Part shown: one piece after another, positions 1,239-7,111 of the stretch
Layout of the letters: every line of letters starts with the position of its first letter
Numbering within the stretch: the stretch's first letter is position 1
Origin: a virus
DNA length: 7,111 bases
Reading direction: 5' to 3' (one strand)
IMG/VR virus record: IMGVR_UViG_3300012630_000124
Coordinates: 1-7,111 of that record
Notes under the pieces: generated by a model
What the model was told of the DNA's origin: nothing
Database searches by the model: none
What the model saw: only the letters and a program-made list of their open reading frames with translations
Program-made: the position numbers and the translations under genes

Positions 1239-1622
1239 TTATGAAACTAAGCGCAGTTTTAAAAGCGCTGGGTTGAGGTTGTATTGCTGAGAAAGCGGTA
1301 AAGGTTCGACAAAATCAGCAGGGACTTGCTTCGAGAAATCGACGTTAATCATCTTGATAAACGGAACGACGTTTGACTGGTCGCCAGTCAAATTCATTAG
1401 TTGAGCCAGTGATAAACCAGCGTCGGTAAAATCATGCGTATAGCGGGACCAAGTGTTGCGAGGGTAGTTCGCTTTGGTACGTTCGTAGCCGTCGGTCATG
1501 ATGTTTCTATAAACACCATAGAGGCGGTTTGCTTTTGGATAACTAATTTTGCCGGAATCCGAAACACGGAAAAATTTAGCTTTAAGAGAATTTAAAACAG
1601 ATTCTTTGTCATACGTGTTCAT
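1239..1622 (-). CDS. gX: Candidate nested gene X: in-frame internal start giving the C-terminal 127 aa of pII
   Basis: Met296 (ATG at 1622-1620) sits in FEGATM-NTYD, which matches the Met that starts pX in M13 (FEGDSM-NIYD). An SD-like GAAGGTG lies 5-6 nt upstream. Confidence 0.5.
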   Translation of the reverse strand: MNTYDKESVLNSLKAKFFRVSDSGKISYPKANRLYGVYRNIMTDGYERTKANYPRNTWSRYTHDFTDAGLSLAQLMNLTGDQSNVVPFIKMINVDFSKQVPADFVEPLPLSQQYNLNPALLKLRLVS

Positions 1623-2507
1623 TGTTGCACCTTCAAAAGACTTGAAAACGTCTTTAAATGCTAAACCCCATAGGGTCGGAATTATTTGCGGATTGTCTAT
1701 CTGTAATTGTGGATCTGTGATTAAGCCAAGCGTTGCAGGCAAGCCGCGTTGAGAGAACCAATCTCGATAAATACGAGCCTCAAAACGAACGGCACCAGTG
1801 GCAAATAGCCTAACTTCTGGTCTAGTAATTTCTGCCAATTGGCGTCGGAAATGCTCATACTTGGTTTGAGCATATTTGCGGGTAAGCTTGTTAATTTGCG
1901 AATCGAGTTCAACGAGTTTTAAGTAAACTTTCTTAACGCAAACTTCAGATCCTTTATTGAAATACAAAGTGGTTTTGTATTCTTCATCGTACCAAGGGCG
2001 GGTTTGACCTATCTTGATGTTACGCATCAAATCTAAGCATTGTTGCGCTTGCTGTTGGTTCGGAACATGGGCGGTATAGGTCACATCTAAGTAATCAACT
2101 ACACCATGCTCCCAGTCTAAAAATTCTGTGAGATTGTGATCCCCAAAACAGAACGCCTCGACTACGGCCATGATGCAGAGGTTGAGATTGTCTGAACCGT
2201 AAACGTTGTGACCCTGTAAAAGCTTTGCAGGATTACCAACAATTTTAATGTAAGGAATACGCTTGAAATCTGTGCCGTTGATTATCTTAAAAGCTAAAGA
2301 AGCAAACGAAGAAGGCAGAGATTCGAACTTGTGGAATAACTGCGTAAAAGTAAACTTTTGGTTTTCAGTGTCCCAAGATACACAGCCGGATAAATCAAGT
2401 CCAAAGCGCTCCATTAATGTCCGGTCATCAATAAAGCAAGCACCAGAAGCACTTTCAACATAGTGCTTGCGTAAAAATGGGATGCTGATGGAAACCATAT
2501 CAATCAT
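1239..2507 (-). CDS. gII: Rolling-circle replication initiator (nickase), homologue of Ff gene II protein, 422 aa
   Basis: Motifs match M13 gpII as recalled: MIDM N-terminus; FESLPSSFASLAFKI (M13 FESLPTHYSGIAFKI); NPAKLLQGHNVYG (SPAKVLQGHNVFG); VRFEARI; FEGATMNTYD (FEGDSMNIYD); DSGKISYPKANRLYGVYR (PSGKTSFAKASRYFGFYR); PRNTWSRY; QLMNL...NVVPFIKMINVDFS. ATGA overlap with the upstream 77-aa ORF. Confidence 0.93.
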   Translation of the reverse strand: MIDMVSISIPFLRKHYVESASGACFIDDRTLMERFGLDLSGCVSWDTENQKFTFTQLFHKFESLPSSFASLAFKIINGTDFKRIPYIKIVGNPAKLLQGHNVYGSDNLNLCIMAVVEAFCFGDHNLTEFLDWEHGVVDYLDVTYTAHVPNQQQAQQCLDLMRNIKIGQTRPWYDEEYKTTLYFNKGSEVCVKKVYLKLVELDSQINKLTRKYAQTKYEHFRRQLAEITRPEVRLFATGAVRFEARIYRDWFSQRGLPATLGLITDPQLQIDNPQIIPTLWGLAFKDVFKSFEGATMNTYDKESVLNSLKAKFFRVSDSGKISYPKANRLYGVYRNIMTDGYERTKANYPRNTWSRYTHDFTDAGLSLAQLMNLTGDQSNVVPFIKMINVDFSKQVPADFVEPLPLSQQYNLNPALLKLRLVS

Positions 2508-2737
2508 AGTTTGCTACCATTGTCACCAGTGACGGCAGTTCTTAAAGATACTGCGCGACCAGTTCGAGAGCTTCGAAGATTACCTAAAACTAAATCGCGA
2601 TTTTCGCAACAAAGGGAAGCAGCAAGTTGAAAATCGGCTAAAACAGAAGTAGGGATCCAAAGCGTTATTTTTTCCAAACCTTGAGAACGTTTTGAAATTT
2701 CGTAACGTTGGTTGCGTGATAACTGAGAATTGCTCAT
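2504..2737 (-). CDS. Hypothetical small protein, 77 aa; possibly a small DNA-binding regulator
   Basis: GAGG lies 7 nt upstream of the ATG. ATGA overlaps at both ends (with the 139-aa ORF and with gII) indicate translational coupling. The segment RNQRYEISKRSQGLEKITLWIPTSVLADF fits the R-x-x-R...GL-x-x-h-x-h-W-h-P pattern I recall from small RepB/CopB-like and DUF3018 (MazE-like) regulators. That assignment is unverified. Confidence 0.6.
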   Translation of the reverse strand: MSNSQLSRNQRYEISKRSQGLEKITLWIPTSVLADFQLAASLCCENRDLVLGNLRSSRTGRAVSLRTAVTGDNGSKL

Positions 2738-3153
2738 GAACGAACCTCAGTAAATTCAACCAAGTTGCACAGCCAATCGCCAACAGCTGGAGAGAAAACC
2801 GAAGGATTAGCGCAGCCTTTGCTAACATCTAAATCATCCTTGCCACATACTGGGCAAGGAAGCTGACAACGCTCAGCGGAGCGGCTAACTTCGTTTGCCC
2901 GAGCGCTGTCAACTAAATCAACAACGATAAAAGAAAGGCCGTTTGATTGAAGTTGGTTTTCTATCGTTGATTTAAACTTGGATTGAGCAACTTGAATTTT
3001 TGCCGGAACAATTTTCTTGGCGTTAGCACCCAGAATTTCAAAGTTCGCGTATAGTGTCCATTGCTCGAAAATTGCGCGTACAGGTTCACGAGTTAACGTG
3101 AGTAAAATGCCAGCATTGGCAGCCTGTAAGGCTTTGATTGTGTTCATATCCAT
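2734..3153 (-). CDS. Hypothetical protein, 139 aa, with a Cys-rich C-terminal part (CQLPCPVCG...C...C); first gene downstream of the operator region
   Basis: Strong SD AGGAG lies 9 nt upstream of the ATG at 3153. ATGA overlap with the next ORF. No family recognised. Confidence 0.65.
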   Translation of the reverse strand: MDMNTIKALQAANAGILLTLTREPVRAIFEQWTLYANFEILGANAKKIVPAKIQVAQSKFKSTIENQLQSNGLSFIVVDLVDSARANEVSRSAERCQLPCPVCGKDDLDVSKGCANPSVFSPAVGDWLCNLVEFTEVRS

Positions 3154-3192
3154 GAGAAGCCGCTCCTGATATACTTTTTATAAAAACAAAGT

Positions 3193-3210
3193 GTATCCAA
3201 AATTGGATAC
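3193..3210. promoter_or_regulatory. Operator-like perfect 18-bp palindrome GTATCCAAAATTGGATAC
   Basis: Read directly. It lies in the 104-bp divergent intergenic region and shares the GTATCCA/TGGATAC half-sites with the second palindrome. Confidence 0.7.
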
Positions 3211-3220
3211 GGAATGAAAT

Positions 3221-3238
3221 GTATCCATAGTTGGATAC
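3221..3238. promoter_or_regulatory. Operator-like 18-bp palindrome GTATCCATAGTTGGATAC (7-bp arms)
   Basis: Read directly. Its centre is 28 bp from the first palindrome, and it lies 20 bp upstream of the repressor-like gene ATG. Confidence 0.7.
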
Positions 3239-3257
3239 AAAGTCAAGGGCGTTACGT

Positions 3258-3620
3258 ATGAATTTCAGCAACAAGCTAATTGACCAATACAAAGAATTTA
3301 TAAAAGCGAAATCAGATGCAGCAGCAGCAGCTGAGCTGCCACACATGACCAGAATGAATGTGAGCGCAATCAGAAAAGGTGAAAGAAGACTTACAGAAGA
3401 ACAAGCAGTATTTATTGCTGAAGCTTGCGCGCTCGACGTCGCACTAGTGCTTGTCGAACTAGCAGCTGAATCAGCCAAAAGCGAAAAAGCACAATCAGCA
3501 TGGAACGCATTAGCAAAAAAGCTTAAAGCCGCTTCAAGCTTATTGCTTTTGGCGGCTTTTCTTAGTATTTCAGGCACTTCAGGCTTAAATCAAAGCCAAC
3601 GCATCAAATATAGCCCATAA
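3258..3620 (+). CDS. HTH (Cro/CI/XRE-like) transcriptional repressor candidate, 120 aa, with a hydrophobic C-terminal segment
   Basis: It is the only plus-strand gene and is divergent from the replication/structural operon, like rstR in CTXphi or Pf4r. ATG at 3258 with AAGGG 8 nt upstream. The HTH-like stretch is SDAAAAAELPHMTRMNVSAIRKGERRLTEEQAVFIAEACALD. Confidence 0.75.
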   Translation: MNFSNKLIDQYKEFIKAKSDAAAAAELPHMTRMNVSAIRKGERRLTEEQAVFIAEACALDVALVLVELAAESAKSEKAQSAWNALAKKLKAASSLLLLAAFLSISGTSGLNQSQRIKYSP

Positions 3621-3639
3621 TGTGATTATTACGTTAAAT
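3610..3639. other. dif-like candidate XerC/XerD recombination site (possible attP)
   Basis: ATAGCCCATAA-TGTGATTA-TTACGTTAAAT. The right arm matches the conserved XerD arm TTATGTTAAAT at 10/11. The left arm ends in the conserved (G)C-CATAA of XerC arms. The spacer is 8 nt (dif has 6, cer has 8). No integrase gene is present. Confidence 0.4.
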
Positions 3640-3708
3640 AACAATAACTTAGTGAAAGCTTATTGGCTAAATATAGAGCAACAGCAAAAAAACAGCAACC
3701 CTTGAAAG

Positions 3709-3750: not shown

Positions 3751-3793
3751 TACGGCAAGTAACTCAAAAACACGTGCGAAATAGATAAGTTAT

Positions 3794-3815
3794 AAAAAAA
3801 GCCCTTTCGGGCTTT
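3794..3815. terminator. Bidirectional intrinsic terminator hairpin AAAAAAAGCCCTTTCGGGCTTT
   Basis: The GCCC/GGGC stem (extendable to AAAGCCC/GGGCTTT) is flanked by A7 on one side and TTT on the other. On the minus strand it reads hairpin plus TTTTTTT, which would end the gI-ORF69 transcript. On the plus strand it is the first hairpin with trailing Ts after the repressor-like gene. Confidence 0.6.
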
Positions 3816-3828
3816 AGTTTGGCAGAGG

Positions 3829-3844
3829 GAAGCCCAAGGGCTTC
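3829..3844 (-). other. GC-rich stem-loop GAAGCCC-AA-GGGCTTC (candidate packaging signal or minus-strand origin element)
   Basis: Palindrome read directly, in the non-coding region downstream of the last morphogenesis-operon gene. Confidence 0.35.
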
Positions 3845-3869
3845 AAAAGAGTTACGCTCCGCTCCCATC

Positions 3870-3887
3870 AAGGGGCTAACGCCCCTT
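3870..3887 (-). other. GC-rich stem-loop AAGGGGC-TAAC-GCCCCTT (candidate packaging signal or minus-strand origin element)
   Basis: 7-bp stem with a 4-nt loop, read directly, 16 nt downstream of the ORF69 stop. Confidence 0.35.
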
Positions 3888-3902
3888 AATAATCCCCAGA
3901 AG

Positions 3903-4112
3903 TTAGCTAGAGAAATAGCGAATAATCGAAGTAATGATAAATAGTGAAATTAATACAAAATTGAAAAGGCTCAAGCGAAAAGGTTTGGGGTTTGTTTGAT
4001 GGGGTTTGTCATCGGTAGAGAGTTCACGCGGATCTTTATCTAATGTTTGATAGGTTTTAGGTTTAGTTTTTTGATGATGGTCTTTATACCAATCTCTATC
4101 AATCATACTCAT
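3903..4112 (-). CDS. Hypothetical tail-anchored small membrane protein, 69 aa, in the slot occupied by gIV in Ff
   Basis: SD AAGGGA lies 7 nt upstream of the ATG at 4112. The N-terminal 45 aa are charged and Pro/Lys/Asp/Thr-rich, and the C-terminus has the TM-like segment LSLFNFVLISLFIITSII. A hand count gives roughly one-third GC, visibly lower than neighbouring genes. Confidence 0.5.
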   Translation of the reverse strand: MSMIDRDWYKDHHQKTKPKTYQTLDKDPRELSTDDKPHQTNPKPFRLSLFNFVLISLFIITSIIRYFSS

Positions 4113-5682: not shown

Positions 5683-7111
5683 TATGGGGTTACCTCAAGT
5701 GTGCGATGGAAGATACGGAAACAAAGTAACAGCGTGTAAATTGATAAAAGCCAACTCACAACAGGTTGACCCCAATCATTATAAGGGGGGCAATGTTGGT
5801 CAACAGTGATGGTTTTTGGCTCACCTCGAATAGATACAGAGAGATTAAAACCGCGACAGCCACCACTAGTTGGTAAGGTTACAAAATCCAAAAGCTTTGG
5901 TTGACCGTTAAAATTAGGTAACGGTGATTCGATGAAATCAGTAAGTTTTTGGTGCTCTTGGGTGAGCTTATCAACTTCAGTTTGTACACTCTGACCTTGC
6001 ACGGCCTGATTTCCCCAGCTGTTATTTGAAGCCTCATATTGAGATTTGGTTAGACCGGGGAATTTAGACCAATCAATAGGAGTTTCTTCTTTTGGTGGTG
6101 CGTCAGGTGTAATAGTTTGATTAGTGTATAAATCAACAAAGGTACTGCCTTCGTGCCAGTTGTTAATCTGGACTAATAAATTAGGCATCATTTCTGCTGG
6201 TACATAATTAGGGGCGTTTGGGTTGGTATGCTGCACAGTACCAGTAGCAATAGCTTCAGCAGCATCAGCAAAAGAGGGGCTAACAGGGTCAAAAGTCGGA
6301 TTATCAAATAAATCCGGATAAGGTGCGCCAGTCTCCCAATCAACAAAATCATCTAGACCAATATCAGCATCAATCAAAGGATTAGGGTTTTTTGCATATT
6401 GTTCATTTAGCCAAGTCTCATCAATCGCAGAAACTCGTATGTTATTAGTTGGCCGGAAGCACGAATGAGCATTATTAATGAATAAAGGGCCATTGGTGTA
6501 ATCTGGATTTGCATCCGGTGGACAAATAAAACCTTCTTGATTTTGACCAAGCCCAACAGAACCAGCGACAAACTGAGTGCCAACAGAAGGCGCGGAAGTA
6601 TTACAAACAGGCTGACCAGATGAATTAGCAAAACAAGTAGTTTGGACAGCAGTAGAGACAATTTTATAACCGATAGTGGCACTAGATAAATTAATAGTAT
6701 TAATGGACTCAAACGAGCGATTAATAGTGAGCGTGATATTGGGTGCCATTTCAATATTTTCAGAAGCTTTAGGCAATTGAATTTGTGAAGATACGGATTC
6801 AGAGGCTTTAGAAACACAATCAGCGAACGTAGTACCAGTGAAAGCGCCTAAGTGAGTATCAGAAGGATAATAAGCATTACAAGTAACGAAAGTTTGCGGT
6901 TTAGCGGGGACATGATCAGTAAAATCTATTTCACCTGGTTGCGATGCATCTTCAGTATCAAAGCACAGAGAAGTAAACAATTGAGAAGTACAATTTGCCT
7001 CATAAGCACCATAAGCAATCAAAGCAGCTTTACCAGCTGGAGTCATATTAGCGGCACGCTGACCAAGGGAAGACAAAGCGCGTAAAAAATTAGGCTTAGC
7101 CATCCGCACAG
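5682..7111 (-). CDS. gIII: Main body of the pIII-like adsorption/minor coat protein. The ORF-track start at 7109 is an artefact of linearisation.
   Basis: This is the largest ORF and sits immediately after the major coat gene and terminator, as gIII does in Ff. It has several Cys pairs. The C-terminal hydrophobic anchor VVSWLLSIYTLLLCFRIF is preceded by C...C, like the pIII C-domain. Its stop overlaps the gVI start (TAATG at 5684-5680). Confidence 0.85.
   Translation of the reverse strand, partial: VRMAKPNFLRALSSLGQRAANMTPAGKAALIAYGAYEANCTSQLFTSLCFDTEDASQPGEIDFTDHVPAKPQTFVTCNAYYPSDTHLGAFTGTTFADCVSKASESVSSQIQLPKASENIEMAPNITLTINRSFESINTINLSSATIGYKIVSTAVQTTCFANSSGQPVCNTSAPSVGTQFVAGSVGLGQNQEGFICPPDANPDYTNGPLFINNAHSCFRPTNNIRVSAIDETWLNEQYAKNPNPLIDADIGLDDFVDWETGAPYPDLFDNPTFDPVSPSFADAAEAIATGTVQHTNPNAPNYVPAEMMPNLLVQINNWHEGSTFVDLYTNQTITPDAPPKEETPIDWSKFPGLTKSQYEASNNSWGNQAVQGQSVQTEVDKLTQEHQKLTDFIESPLPNFNGQPKLLDFVTLPTSGGCRGFNLSVSIRGEPKTITVDQHCPPYNDWGQPVVSWLLSIYTLLLCFRIFHRTLEVTP
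7057..7111. repeat. Second copy of the 55-nt terminal redundancy (duplicate of 1-55)
   Basis: Identical to 1-55. 55 is a common de Bruijn assembler k-mer length. Confidence 0.95.

Follow-up and report, generated by a model that had tools for sequence, protein, structure and literature searches.

Organization of the early operon

The window analysed here, a 7,111-nt stretch of viral DNA (IMG/VR record IMGVR_UViG_3300012630_000124), contains a complete inovirus genome as a 7,056-nt circle. The genome appears to integrate at dif. It carries a dif-like site at positions 3612–3639, the phage encodes no integrase, and the prophages of its relatives are bordered by a canonical dif and a phage-type site. 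Behind a promoter-like site that faces a DUF3693-type repressor gene, the order of cistrons is gene 1 (139 residues), gene 2 (77 residues) and gII, the replication initiator gene, with an ATGA overlap at each junction (Table 1). The initial annotation had placed the two small reading frames at 2504–3153 as the first genes under putative operators and chained to gII by such overlaps. Both overlaps could be read on the minus strand, and directly upstream of gene 1 lie the promoter-like site and two operator-like palindromes that overlap it.

Table 1. Features of the early region, in positions of the whole window
Feature	Position	Strand	Description
gII replication initiator	1239..2507	-	Phage_CRI + G2P_X_C; third cistron of the chain
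ATGA overlap, gene 2 stop/gII start	2504..2507	-	TCAT on the plus strand
Gene 2, 77 aa	2504..2737	-	ORF; phrog_11804, probably a divergent DUF3018/MazE-like (PF11455) subfamily; solo
ATGA overlap, gene 1 stop/gene 2 start	2734..2737	-	TCAT on the plus strand
Gene 1, 139 aa	2734..3153	-	ORF; first cistron of the early operon; two-domain, with Cys4 module
Shine-Dalgarno-like TGAGG, gene 2	2745..2749	-	7 nt 5' of the ATG, within the end of gene 1
Cys4 module of gene 1 (aa 100-130)	2764..2856	-	C-x2-C-G-K-x8-G-C-x14-C; putative metal binder
N-terminal alpha/beta domain of gene 1 (aa 1-88)	2890..3153	-	AlphaFold2 model; R26 invariant
Shine-Dalgarno AGGAG, gene 1	3163..3167	-	9 nt 5' of the ATG
Operator-like palindrome O1	3193..3210	.	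GTATCCAA-nn-TTGGATAC
Sigma-70-like early promoter	3218..3246	-	TTGACT (-35, 3246-3241), 17 nt, TACATT (-10, 3223-3218)
Operator-like palindrome O2	3220..3239	.	TGTATCCA-nnnn-TGGATACA; overlaps the early promoter
Divergent HTH repressor, DUF3693/phrog_638	3258..3620	+	likely start ATG 3258, giving 120 aa

Only its position speaks for the early promoter, which was called from one consensus match, no more than chance would give in this region. Scanning positions 2400–3700 revealed no other promoter-like site, including none internal to the operon. The repressor gene probably starts at ATG 3258 because the corresponding products in relatives are 120 residues long and begin with MNFS. For the window as a whole, megablast against GenBank phages and an Rfam scan gave no match, and DnaA boxes occurred at the chance level only.

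The ATGA overlap of the gene 1/gene 2 type is also present in three of the related loci compared (L005, L028 and L008, in our numbering of loci), and that between gene 2 and gII in L028–L030. No Shine-Dalgarno sequence comparable to those of genes 1 and 2 was found 5–12 nt upstream of the gII start. The overlaps at both junctions, their conservation in relatives and the lack of a ribosome-binding site at gII are as expected of a translationally coupled operon. Lacking such a site, gII probably relies for its translation on the ribosomes that complete gene 2.

Could the two small frames be chance ORFs or a mis-annotation within a long gII leader? The 139-residue ORF has no match in any curated family, as such a frame would not. 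However, the dN/dS ratio is 0.14–0.27 for gene 1 and 0.065 for gene 2 in comparison with relatives, and in the Cys4 module of gene 1 the synonymous changes are saturated (dS) while dN is low. Homologues occur in dozens of clusters, both starts have good Shine-Dalgarno sequences, and both proteins have a confident fold prediction over at least part of their length. Both genes are under purifying selection, and the selection analysis refutes the chance-ORF reading, which we consider vanishingly improbable.

The 139-residue protein belongs to an unannotated family

Sequence comparison makes the 139-residue protein a member of a recurrent, unannotated family rather than a one-off, with 13 close homologues and about 16 full-length clusters at 50% identity. 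It had been described as placeable in no family, which still holds: it matched no Pfam family at E up to 1, and no curated family fits it among PHROGs, NCBIfam, PADLOC, PDB sequences or Foldseek targets. The best NCBIfam match had E 0.088 and scored 13 bits, where the cut-off is 60. An Ff counterpart had likewise been denied to both genes, in agreement with tblastn, by which the 139-residue protein found no match in 50,697 phage records, while the matches of the 77-residue protein were confined to Vibrio, Shewanella and one further phage.

The AlphaFold2 model predicts an N-terminal domain (pLDDT about 80 over residues 1–85) that begins with a helix and three long strands and continues with a second helix, a further strand and a last helix; the elements modelled include H3–11, E15–24, E30–41, E47–58 and H61–70. 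A Ser/Arg-rich linker joins this domain to the 31-residue Cys4 module. With the 139-residue model, Foldseek retrieved nothing at E 0.001 or better from the PDB and BFVD. Chains of dsRBDs, which have an alpha-beta-beta-beta-alpha fold, were among the matches of the N-domain, at E 0.6–1.7 with target-normalised TM-scores of 0.23–0.44. Neither the 139-residue nor the 77-residue protein matched a characterised family or a solved structure in sequence and Foldseek searches, and both models are devoid of significant structural matches.

A compact module with four conserved cysteines

The initial annotation had pointed out a Cys cluster suggestive of metal binding. The cluster is there, but its last spacing is x14 instead of x15, and C96 is not conserved among the homologues, so that the conserved set comprises four cysteines and not five. 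The invariant residues in 59 sequences and the domain alignments are C100, C103, K105, C114, W127 and C129. The module recurs in about 50 protein clusters. AlphaFold2 modelled this part at pLDDT <50, and it is the conserved Cys pattern that suggests metal binding; the module may bind one zinc.

We compared the module with known Cys-rich folds. Among the 59 module-bearing proteins, no Pfam Zn-ribbon family was matched by more than one, with E 0.0026 or weaker, and a consensus Cys4 peptide found no match in phages by tblastn. A known zinc-ribbon or zinc-finger family of Pfam or NCBIfam was rejected as an identity for the module, as no match was significant. Profile searches of the PDB with the module and with the full 139-residue family returned only non-significant matches to PHD fingers, the best of the Cys4 profile being BAZ2B (4qf3, E 0.031) and Arabidopsis ORC1b (5hh7, E 0.17). 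PHD fingers and the module have C-x2-C-x-K ... C-x2-P ... G-D-W-x-C in common. PHD fingers, however, bind two zincs in a cross-brace through eight ligands (C4HC3), whereas the module has only four conserved cysteines, which do not map onto any single PHD zinc site. Lacking the eight ligands and a significant match, the module was not assigned to the PHD fingers, which we keep as a lead only.

Small Cys4 proteins such as Ogr/Delta, Mu Com, TraR/DksA-like proteins and Lar are encoded in early or regulatory regions of phages, and they resemble the Cys4 protein in size, in the number of cysteines and in location. Those proteins are CxxC...CxxC ribbons, whereas the module has one CxxC knuckle with the spacing 2/10/14, and none of the 59 module members matched their Pfam families.

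The 77-residue protein is probably a distant relative of DUF3018/MazE-like proteins

For the 77-residue protein, a RepB/CopB-like or a DUF3018 (MazE-like) regulator had been suggested. The former found no support, RepB_C being matched by a single sequence out of the 44 aligned (E 0.2); the latter did, if transitively. The protein matches phrog_11804, a family of unknown function (E 1.5e-20; residues 6–64 against positions 1–59 of 61), as does a 73-residue ORF directly upstream of gII in L007. PF11455 was matched by 42 of the 44 aligned family members (E up to 1; best E 1.7e-07), and its threshold of 22 bits was passed by P0071 (24.3) and P0081 (26.3), while others scored 13–20 bits. The window protein itself and P0014 gave no match to PF11455 even at E up to 10, so that membership of the former is transitive only, through its homologues. 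The PF11455 profile and the 77-residue homologues have the segment R-N-x2-Y-E...G-L-x-K-x-T-L-W-x-P in common. One homologue matched UrfF at E 0.057, far below the cut-off.

The AlphaFold2 model of the 77-residue protein (mean pLDDT 86) consists of a helix, an extended segment, a second helix and a structured C-terminal hairpin. Foldseek found nothing with E <1 in the PDB, and a sequence-profile search of the PDB with the family returned no match. A ribbon-helix-helix protein of the Arc/Mnt/CopG type, with its strand-helix-helix fold, was discarded in the absence of profile similarity and of a Foldseek match. The hhalign probability of the family against Arc and Mnt was below 1%, and DNA binding by the 77-residue protein is consequently putative.

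Phages carry antitoxin mimics, and the 77-residue protein might be an orphan antitoxin, a counter-defence decoy neutralising host toxins of the MazF/PemK type that would otherwise abort the infection. Some homologues are labelled 'antitoxin MazE-like' or 'DUF3018' in their sources and some pass the PF11455 cut-off. The gene is solo and occurs in inoviruses of unrelated lineages and in certain tailed Vibrio phages, a distribution expected of an accessory or counter-defence gene. In the canonical plasmid pair, a DUF3018 gene is coupled with the gene of a MazF-like toxin (PMC6354349). Against the decoy, the matches to PF11455 cover only the N-terminal half of the profile (positions of about 3–36 out of 65), and the window protein has no match to PF11455 or in PADLOC. 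The C-terminal half, by which type II antitoxins usually bind the toxin, differs from that of PF11455 and is predicted to be a folded hairpin instead of a disordered tail. We therefore regard the decoy as rather unlikely.

No gene for MazF/PemK or another toxin was found in the complete 7-kb genome, and none lies beside the 77-residue homologues in KSF1, Dolos, Vibrio PE phages, Vibrio and Pseudoalteromonas prophages or L028–L030; a MazF/PemK neighbour, as in the canonical pair, was seen in no locus. A Maz-like antitoxin ORF of the Dolos phage is mentioned in passing in the literature. Our literature search for DUF3018, PF11455 or MazE-like proteins in filamentous phages, and for zinc proteins upstream of gII, returned nothing functional.

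Genes 1 and 2 are not an obligate pair

It had also been proposed that the two genes constitute a copy-control pair or a toxin-antitoxin-like module. A toxic or effector 139-residue protein with the 77-residue protein as its antidote or partner might be suggested by the adjacent, ATGA-overlapped genes, by the antitoxin-like family name of the second, and by the recurrence of the same gene pair in L028–L030. The neighbourhoods in other phages argue otherwise. Gene 1 of the relatives is followed by unrelated proteins of 87–98 residues or directly by gII. Near-identical copies of gene 1 (92% in the N-domain) precede proteins of 87–97 residues unrelated to gene 2 in L005 and L012, and an extra gene in L007; in L013 and L047 gene 1 abuts gII. 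Conversely, in most inoviruses the 77-residue family is encoded just after gI/Zot without the 139-residue family, and KSF1, Dolos and Vibrio and Pseudoalteromonas prophages have the former with no homologue of gene 1. The second position of the operon is a swappable cassette, and genes 1 and 2 are thus not an obligate or toxin-antitoxin pair. A MazEF-like type II module was rejected, there being no adjacent toxin and no co-conservation of the two genes. The pair hypothesis is disfavoured, and we give it very little credence. The two proteins presumably act independently of each other.

Gene 1 holds a fixed place between repressor and Rep

A survey of the neighbourhoods bore out a conserved position for gene 1, in about ten inovirus lineages, but not for gene 2. 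The gene 1 family lies upstream of the Rep gene with 0–3 small ORFs in between, and wherever the contig extends far enough it is flanked by a divergent regulator gene encoding a DUF3693-like or other HTH protein; the exception is L024, where the 96-residue neighbour has no family match. The downstream Rep is of the Phage_CRI family in the window and in L005, L008, L010, L013, L024, L027, L032 and L034, of the Rep_trans family in L033 and of the Phage_GPA family in L041. Because three Rep families are involved, gene 1 is not the cofactor of one particular Rep, and this candidate role was ruled out.

The module retains 45–86% identity to that of the window across inovirus loci, while the N-domain was too diverged to be detected by tblastn in seven of the 12 loci compared. 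This conservation of the module alongside a diverging N-domain suggests that the module has a conserved target. Early regions of tailed phages carry the Cys4 module as well, alone or fused. It follows lambda O/P-like genes in L021, L035 and L052, L031 has it close to a PolB gene, and L042–L044 carry it within a nin-like region. The module of tailed phages is not beside the repressor gene, a point against reading gene 1 purely as a Cro or antirepressor.

In Pf4, the first gene divergent from the repressor gene Pf4r is xisF4, whose product is an excisionase and activator. Gene 1 likewise comes first opposite the repressor gene of a temperate inovirus, which is also where cro lies. It showed no sequence or fold similarity to XisF4, and here there is a dif-like site and no own integrase. 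By analogy of position only, an XisF4-like activator or antirepressor is possible.

The Cys4 protein might also be a recombination-directionality or Xer-modulating factor for entry into or exit from dif, comparable to XisF4 in Pf4 and XafT in TLCphi. This would suit a phage with a dif-like site, dif-flanked relatives and no integrase, and a gene placed where Pf4 has xisF4. A tyrosine recombinase gene does adjoin the Cys4 gene outside the inoviruses, in L021 and L035 and in L039, but these amount to two independent lineages, too few for us to accept a general link between module and recombinase, and in the tailed phages L031 and L042–L044 no recombinase is nearby. In Pfam, the 139-residue protein also matched neither an excisionase or XafT family nor an HTH, MerR-like or DUF3653 domain, and we rejected an excisionase, XisF4-like or XafT-like identity. 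The dif-integrating inoviruses described so far do not, to our knowledge, rely on such a protein, and the Xer-modulating role seems to us unlikely.

Equally, an early protein could serve host takeover or counter-defence, inhibiting a nuclease, a defence system or another host process, with no role in the switch or the replication of the phage. The early position of gene 1 and a small conserved module combined with many partner domains are compatible with this, as is its presence in inoviruses and tailed phages alike, whose replication systems are unrelated. However, the 139-residue protein has no match to PADLOC or any known anti-defence family, and a 7-kb genome keeps gene 1 at one fixed place through about ten diverged lineages while its neighbour is freely swapped. 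A fixed position next to a swapped neighbour is more what one would expect of a core function than of an accessory one, and we consider host takeover or counter-defence improbable.

A possible role in the lysis-lysogeny switch

The best joint explanation, which we advance tentatively and with somewhat less than even confidence, is a coupled early operon in which gene 1 encodes a switch or licensing factor and gene 2 a DNA-binding regulator, the two acting independently. When repression is lifted, the products of gene 1, gene 2 and gII would be made together. The conserved target on which the Cys4 module would dock might be a host protein or else a nucleic-acid structure, and the fast-evolving N-domain would supply phage-specific contacts. 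Our best guess for the gene 1 protein is a factor that acts early, in the lysis-lysogeny switch or in replication licensing. Gene 2 would be a mobile accessory gene encoding a small dimeric DNA-binding regulator, not an antitoxin. Of the DUF3018/MazE-like fold, the regulator seems to have kept only the N-terminal half, with its basic helix, extended strand and second helix, to which it adds a structured hairpin of its own.

CTXphi also offers a comparison. It is a temperate phage that integrates at dif, its repressor gene rstR is divergent from the replication operon, and the antirepressor of RS1 is RstC. The window phage is alike in being an apparently dif-integrating inovirus with the repressor gene divergent from the replication operon. 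In CTXphi, however, the Rep gene rstA comes directly after the operators, whereas here gII has one or two further cistrons in front of it.

A more specific reading, which we offer as doubtful, is that C-x2-C-G-K-x8-G-C-x14-C is an undescribed phage zinc finger that docks on one conserved host component or on ssDNA or a hairpin. Its carrier might be the missing lytic-side switch or licensing factor of dif-integrating temperate inoviruses, obligatorily made together with Rep. Proteins of replication, recombination or transcription are examples of such host components.

Conclusions

Small inovirus genes labelled 'MazE-like' should not be taken for parts of toxin-antitoxin systems. What was one hypothetical gene becomes, with this analysis, a defined and searchable family, placed between the repressor and Rep genes of three Rep families, and the analysis delineates a compact, highly constrained Cys4 module common to inoviruses and tailed phages. 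The virulence of bacteria and their behaviour in biofilms are shaped by the temperate filamentous phages that they carry, and the proteins for lysogeny exit and rolling-circle licensing are largely unknown outside CTXphi and Pf4; the gene 1 family may be a candidate for such a role.

Genome organization and integration

The window, a metagenomic contig of exactly 7,111 nt, represents a circular genome that is complete at 7,056 nt, because its two ends share an identical stretch of 55 nt, an assembly overlap, and gIII reads through the resulting junction. The reading across this junction (547 aa) replaces the listed gIII ORF of 475 aa, which has a GTG start. The minus strand carries every structural and replication gene, with a G5P-like gene, small coat genes, gVI and gI/Zot besides gII and gIII, and the sole plus-strand gene encodes an HTH repressor (DUF3693, phrog_638). 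For this repressor, the ATG at 3258 (MNFSNKLIDQYKEF...) is a likelier start than the listed TTG, because its size of 120 aa and its N-terminus would then equal those of its relatives. The initiator pII has about 36% identity to its Ff and IKe counterparts; Ff and IKe have neither a repressor nor genes upstream of gII.

Since the genome carries no integrase gene and has a dif-like site, its integration is probably carried out by the XerCD recombinases of the host. At the junction on the repressor side, four related prophages (L005, L028, L010, and L008) show a canonical dif (..GCCCATAATGTATATTATGTTAAAT), and at the other junction the phage-type site. At L029, the canonical dif alone was seen, the contig stopping before the far junction, and at L012 the phage-type site alone. 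On the L010 contig, a single dif region is occupied by a head-to-head tandem of two distinct inovirus prophages, and the Cys4 gene is present in just one of them. Several GC-rich hairpins, candidates for a terminator, an origin, or a packaging signal, occur in the window where non-coding sequence separates the dif-like site from the 69-aa ORF. The 69-aa ORF itself fills the slot after Zot that holds a DUF3018-like gene in other inoviruses.

Coordinates of features in the window and in related loci (handles L001 to L052)
Feature	Position	Strand	Remarks
Terminal overlap	1-55 = 7057-7111
gIII	start 269, through junction, to 5682	minus	547 aa with signal peptide (MRLFLFLFLFVIFSCSVFA...), overlap removed
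gII	2507..1239	minus	domains Phage_CRI and G2P_X_C
Gene 2 (77 aa)	2737..2504	minus	ribosome site TGAGG, 7 nt 5' of ATG
Gene 1 (139 aa)	3153..2734	minus	ribosome site AGGAG, 9 nt 5' of ATG
ATGA overlaps	2734-2737; 2504-2507	minus	gene 1/gene 2; gene 2/gII
Palindromes O1, O2	3193-3210; 3220-3239		operator-like
Repressor ORF as listed	3231-3620	plus	TTG start at 3231, within O2
dif-like site	3612-3639		AGCCCATAATGTGATTATTACGTTAAAT; XerD arm matching 10/11 positions; at 3' end of repressor gene
GC-rich hairpins	3780-3900		e.g. AAAGCCCTTTCGGGCTTT, GAAGCCCAAGGGCTTC, GGGGCTAACGCCCC
69-aa ORF	3903-4112	minus	directly after gI; phrog_13107 (function unknown), E 2.1e-05
Slot between Cys4 gene and gII	L005:8417-8686		89-aa ORF
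Slot between Cys4 gene and gII	L012:772-1035		87-aa ORF
Slot between Cys4 gene and gII	L007:444-734		96-aa ORF
Slot between Cys4 gene and gII	L008:8420-8701
Slot between Cys4 gene and gII	L010:8420-8713
Slot between Cys4 gene and gII	L024:1178-1471
Slot between Cys4 gene and gII	L027:3551-3847
DnaA-box palindrome	L034:2182-2204; L001 (KSF1):4397-4419; L010:6683-6705		TTATCCACA-N-GTGGATAA
Prophages in tandem	L010:1424-7026; L010:7533-13884
ORF of KSF1	NC_006294.1, 5390-5599		unannotated; phrog_11804/DUF3018-like product
DUF3018-like domain gene	L004:3800-4231		143-aa protein, Vibrio phage 1.257.O

The early operon and its swappable second position

The initial annotation placed two small ORFs, genes 1 and 2, upstream of gII and chained to it by ATGA overlaps; both ORFs and both overlaps are present. 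Genes 1 and 2 each have a ribosome site, and the sequence upstream of the gII start holds no comparable site. Both genes are under purifying selection: dN/dS is 0.14–0.27 when gene 1 is compared with its counterparts in five relatives, and the value for gene 2 is 0.065. The 104 nt that separate gene 1 from the repressor gene contain the two related palindromes and a promoter-like site directed at gene 1 that overlaps O2, the only sigma-70-like site found in a scan of 2400-3700; as a single consensus match of chance-level frequency, it counts through its position only. We propose that translation of gII depends on the upstream cistrons, and because of this dependence all three products would appear together once repression is lifted.

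A toxin-antitoxin-like pairing of genes 1 and 2 had also been suggested, and the relatives of gene 1 speak against it, as they carry other second genes or none. In L005, L007, and L012, the N-domain of gene 1 (aa 1-88) is 92%, 92%, and 86% identical to that of the window, and it is followed by an unrelated 89-aa ORF, by a 96-aa ORF together with a phrog_11804 gene, and by an unrelated 87-aa ORF, respectively. Other ORFs of 93–98 aa, matching no family, occupy the second position in L010, L008, L024, and L027, and gene 1 directly overlaps gII in L013 and L047. Since unrelated ORFs or none follow gene 1 in these relatives, position 2 is a swappable cassette, and an obligate pair, toxin-antitoxin or other, is unsupported. 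The slot behaves as a hypervariable cassette site within the early operon: its ORFs of 87–98 aa are of at least four unrelated kinds, with no match in Pfam or PHROG. Comparison with L028, where the 77-aa protein is 91% identical and the gene 1 product only 71%, indicates recombination between the two genes.

The Cys4 family

The 139-aa protein had no family match in Pfam, PHROG, NCBIfam, or PADLOC, and tblastn against GenBank phages returned none. Thirteen homologues were found in an index of 5.8 billion proteins. Among 1.84 billion cluster representatives, an exhaustive HMMER search with the profile of these homologues detected 53 matches, about 16 of them full-length (130–158 aa) and about 37 sharing the C-terminal module alone. 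By these comparisons, the gene belongs to an unannotated family. The module follows the pattern C-x2-C-G-K-[TS]-[DN]-[FL]-D-x3-G-C-x2-P-x-V-x-S-P-A-V-G-D-W-x-C; in 59 sequences, the four Cys and one Lys are invariant, the Trp nearly so, and the spacing is fixed. The Cys cluster initially proposed as metal-binding needs amending, as its last spacing is 14 residues rather than 15 and its first Cys (C96) is not conserved. The module occurs alone (proteins of 56–65 aa) or at N-terminal, internal, or C-terminal positions, and no Pfam or PHROG family is common to the 59 proteins. Because synonymous sites within the module are saturated while dN is low, the constraint acts on the protein and not on an embedded DNA site.

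None of Pfam, PHROGs, NCBIfam, and PADLOC contains the module, and it is unmatched among PDB chain sequences. The best PDB matches, PHD fingers, were not significant (E 0.031 and 0.17); both show C-x2-C-x-K...C-x2-P...G-D-W-x-C, yet the four Cys of the module do not correspond to a single zinc site of a PHD finger. The AlphaFold2 model of the 139-aa protein (mean pLDDT 65) is usable over residues 1-85, where three long strands separate the first helix from the second and one further strand separates the second from the third, and unusable over the module (pLDDT <50). Foldseek found no significant match for this model, dsRBD-like chains appearing at E >0.5 only.

The Cys4 gene of about ten inovirus lineages shares a strand with the replication initiator gene and is upstream of it, with 0–3 small ORFs between them, and a divergent regulator gene stands on its opposite flank wherever the contig extends far enough. 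Because the initiator is of the Phage_CRI, Rep_trans (L033), or Phage_GPA (L041) type, the Cys4 protein is not a cofactor specific to a single Rep family. At 10 of the 11 compared loci reaching that far, the regulator resembles the DUF3693-type repressor of the window. That of L041 is of a different, HTH_3 type, and L024 is the exception, with a different regulator, though its Cys4 protein and pII resemble those of the window. The module is 45–86% identical to that of the window over the compared inovirus loci, and N-domain similarity was undetectable by tblastn at 7 of 12 loci; some Cys4 proteins have other domains in its place, including DnaJ-like CxxCxGxG repeats. Upstream of gII in several related inoviruses, two DnaA-box 9-mers in inverted orientation form a palindrome that a scan of the window did not find; inside coding sequence, it is translated as LSTETVDN, a peptide that thereby recurs in Cys4 proteins with no other relationship.

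Outside inoviruses, the module gene follows lambda O/P-like replication genes (L021, L035, and L052), occurs together with a protein-primed PolB gene on one contig (L031), adjoins a small tyrosine recombinase gene (L039), or has neighbouring ORFs that we judge from their sequences to be NinB-like and DUF1364-like, within a nin-like region (L042-L044). A role of the Cys4 protein as a modulator of Xer or excision would accord with dif integration and with the two lineages in which a recombinase gene adjoins the Cys4 gene; we consider it rather improbable.

The 77-aa family

The 77-aa protein matches phrog_11804 (function unknown) nearly end to end (E 1.5e-20), and its gene adds a new member to this known but uncharacterised family. 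A profile search gave 45 clusters, mostly of 61–66 aa, from Vibrio, Shewanella, and Pseudoalteromonas, several named "antitoxin MazE-like" or "DUF3018 domain-containing" at source. When 44 aligned members, including the window protein, were scanned singly, 42 matched PF11455, in every case within positions of about 3-36 of the 65 in the profile. The gathering score was reached by some of them only, and neither the window protein nor its closest relative had a match. The DUF3018 assignment suggested earlier thus holds at the level of a divergent subfamily sharing the N-terminal half. The invariant residues are N9, Y12, E13, G20, K23, T25, W27, P29, and G60. The confident AlphaFold2 model (mean pLDDT 86) has two helices, the first basic and the second long, with the extended GLEKITLWIP segment between them and a hairpin after them; no structural neighbour was found in the PDB, and the family showed no profile similarity to Arc or Mnt.

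Genes of this family lie directly after gI/Zot in KSF1, Dolos, and Vibrio PE phages and likewise in Vibrio and Pseudoalteromonas prophages; in one group, the Zot stop abuts the start of the gene, and a secretin gene follows. The KSF1 product and the 77-aa protein of the window share 49% identity. Tailed Vibrio phages of 31–33 kb have the domain as the C-terminal portion of a larger protein, L004 being the sole record examined for size. About 40 tailed Vibrio phages similar to L004 carry the DUF3018-like domain, and the L004 gene stands among early genes, immediately 5' of a gene for a DnaJ-type Cys-rich protein. Placement immediately before gII was seen only in the window, L028-L030, and L007. 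Canonical DUF3018 genes are paired with MazF/PemK-type toxins (PMC6354349), and no such neighbour gene occurs at any 77-aa-family locus examined. That the protein serves as an antitoxin decoy seems unlikely. We favor instead a small dimeric DNA-binding regulator that would retain the N-terminal half of the DUF3018 fold and would not be an antitoxin.

Possible role of the early genes

The Cys4 module might bind one zinc and recognise a conserved target, the variable N-domain conferring phage specificity, and the early action of the protein might be that of a switch or of a factor licensing replication. Together with the coupling of gII and a DNA-binding role of the 77-aa protein, this forms a tentative reading to which we give somewhat less than an even chance. 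That the Cys4 protein is a factor for host takeover or counter-defence is a further, rather improbable alternative. Small Cys-rich early phage proteins, to which it belongs, are a familiar kind. The Cys4 family is now well defined, fixed in position, and testable.
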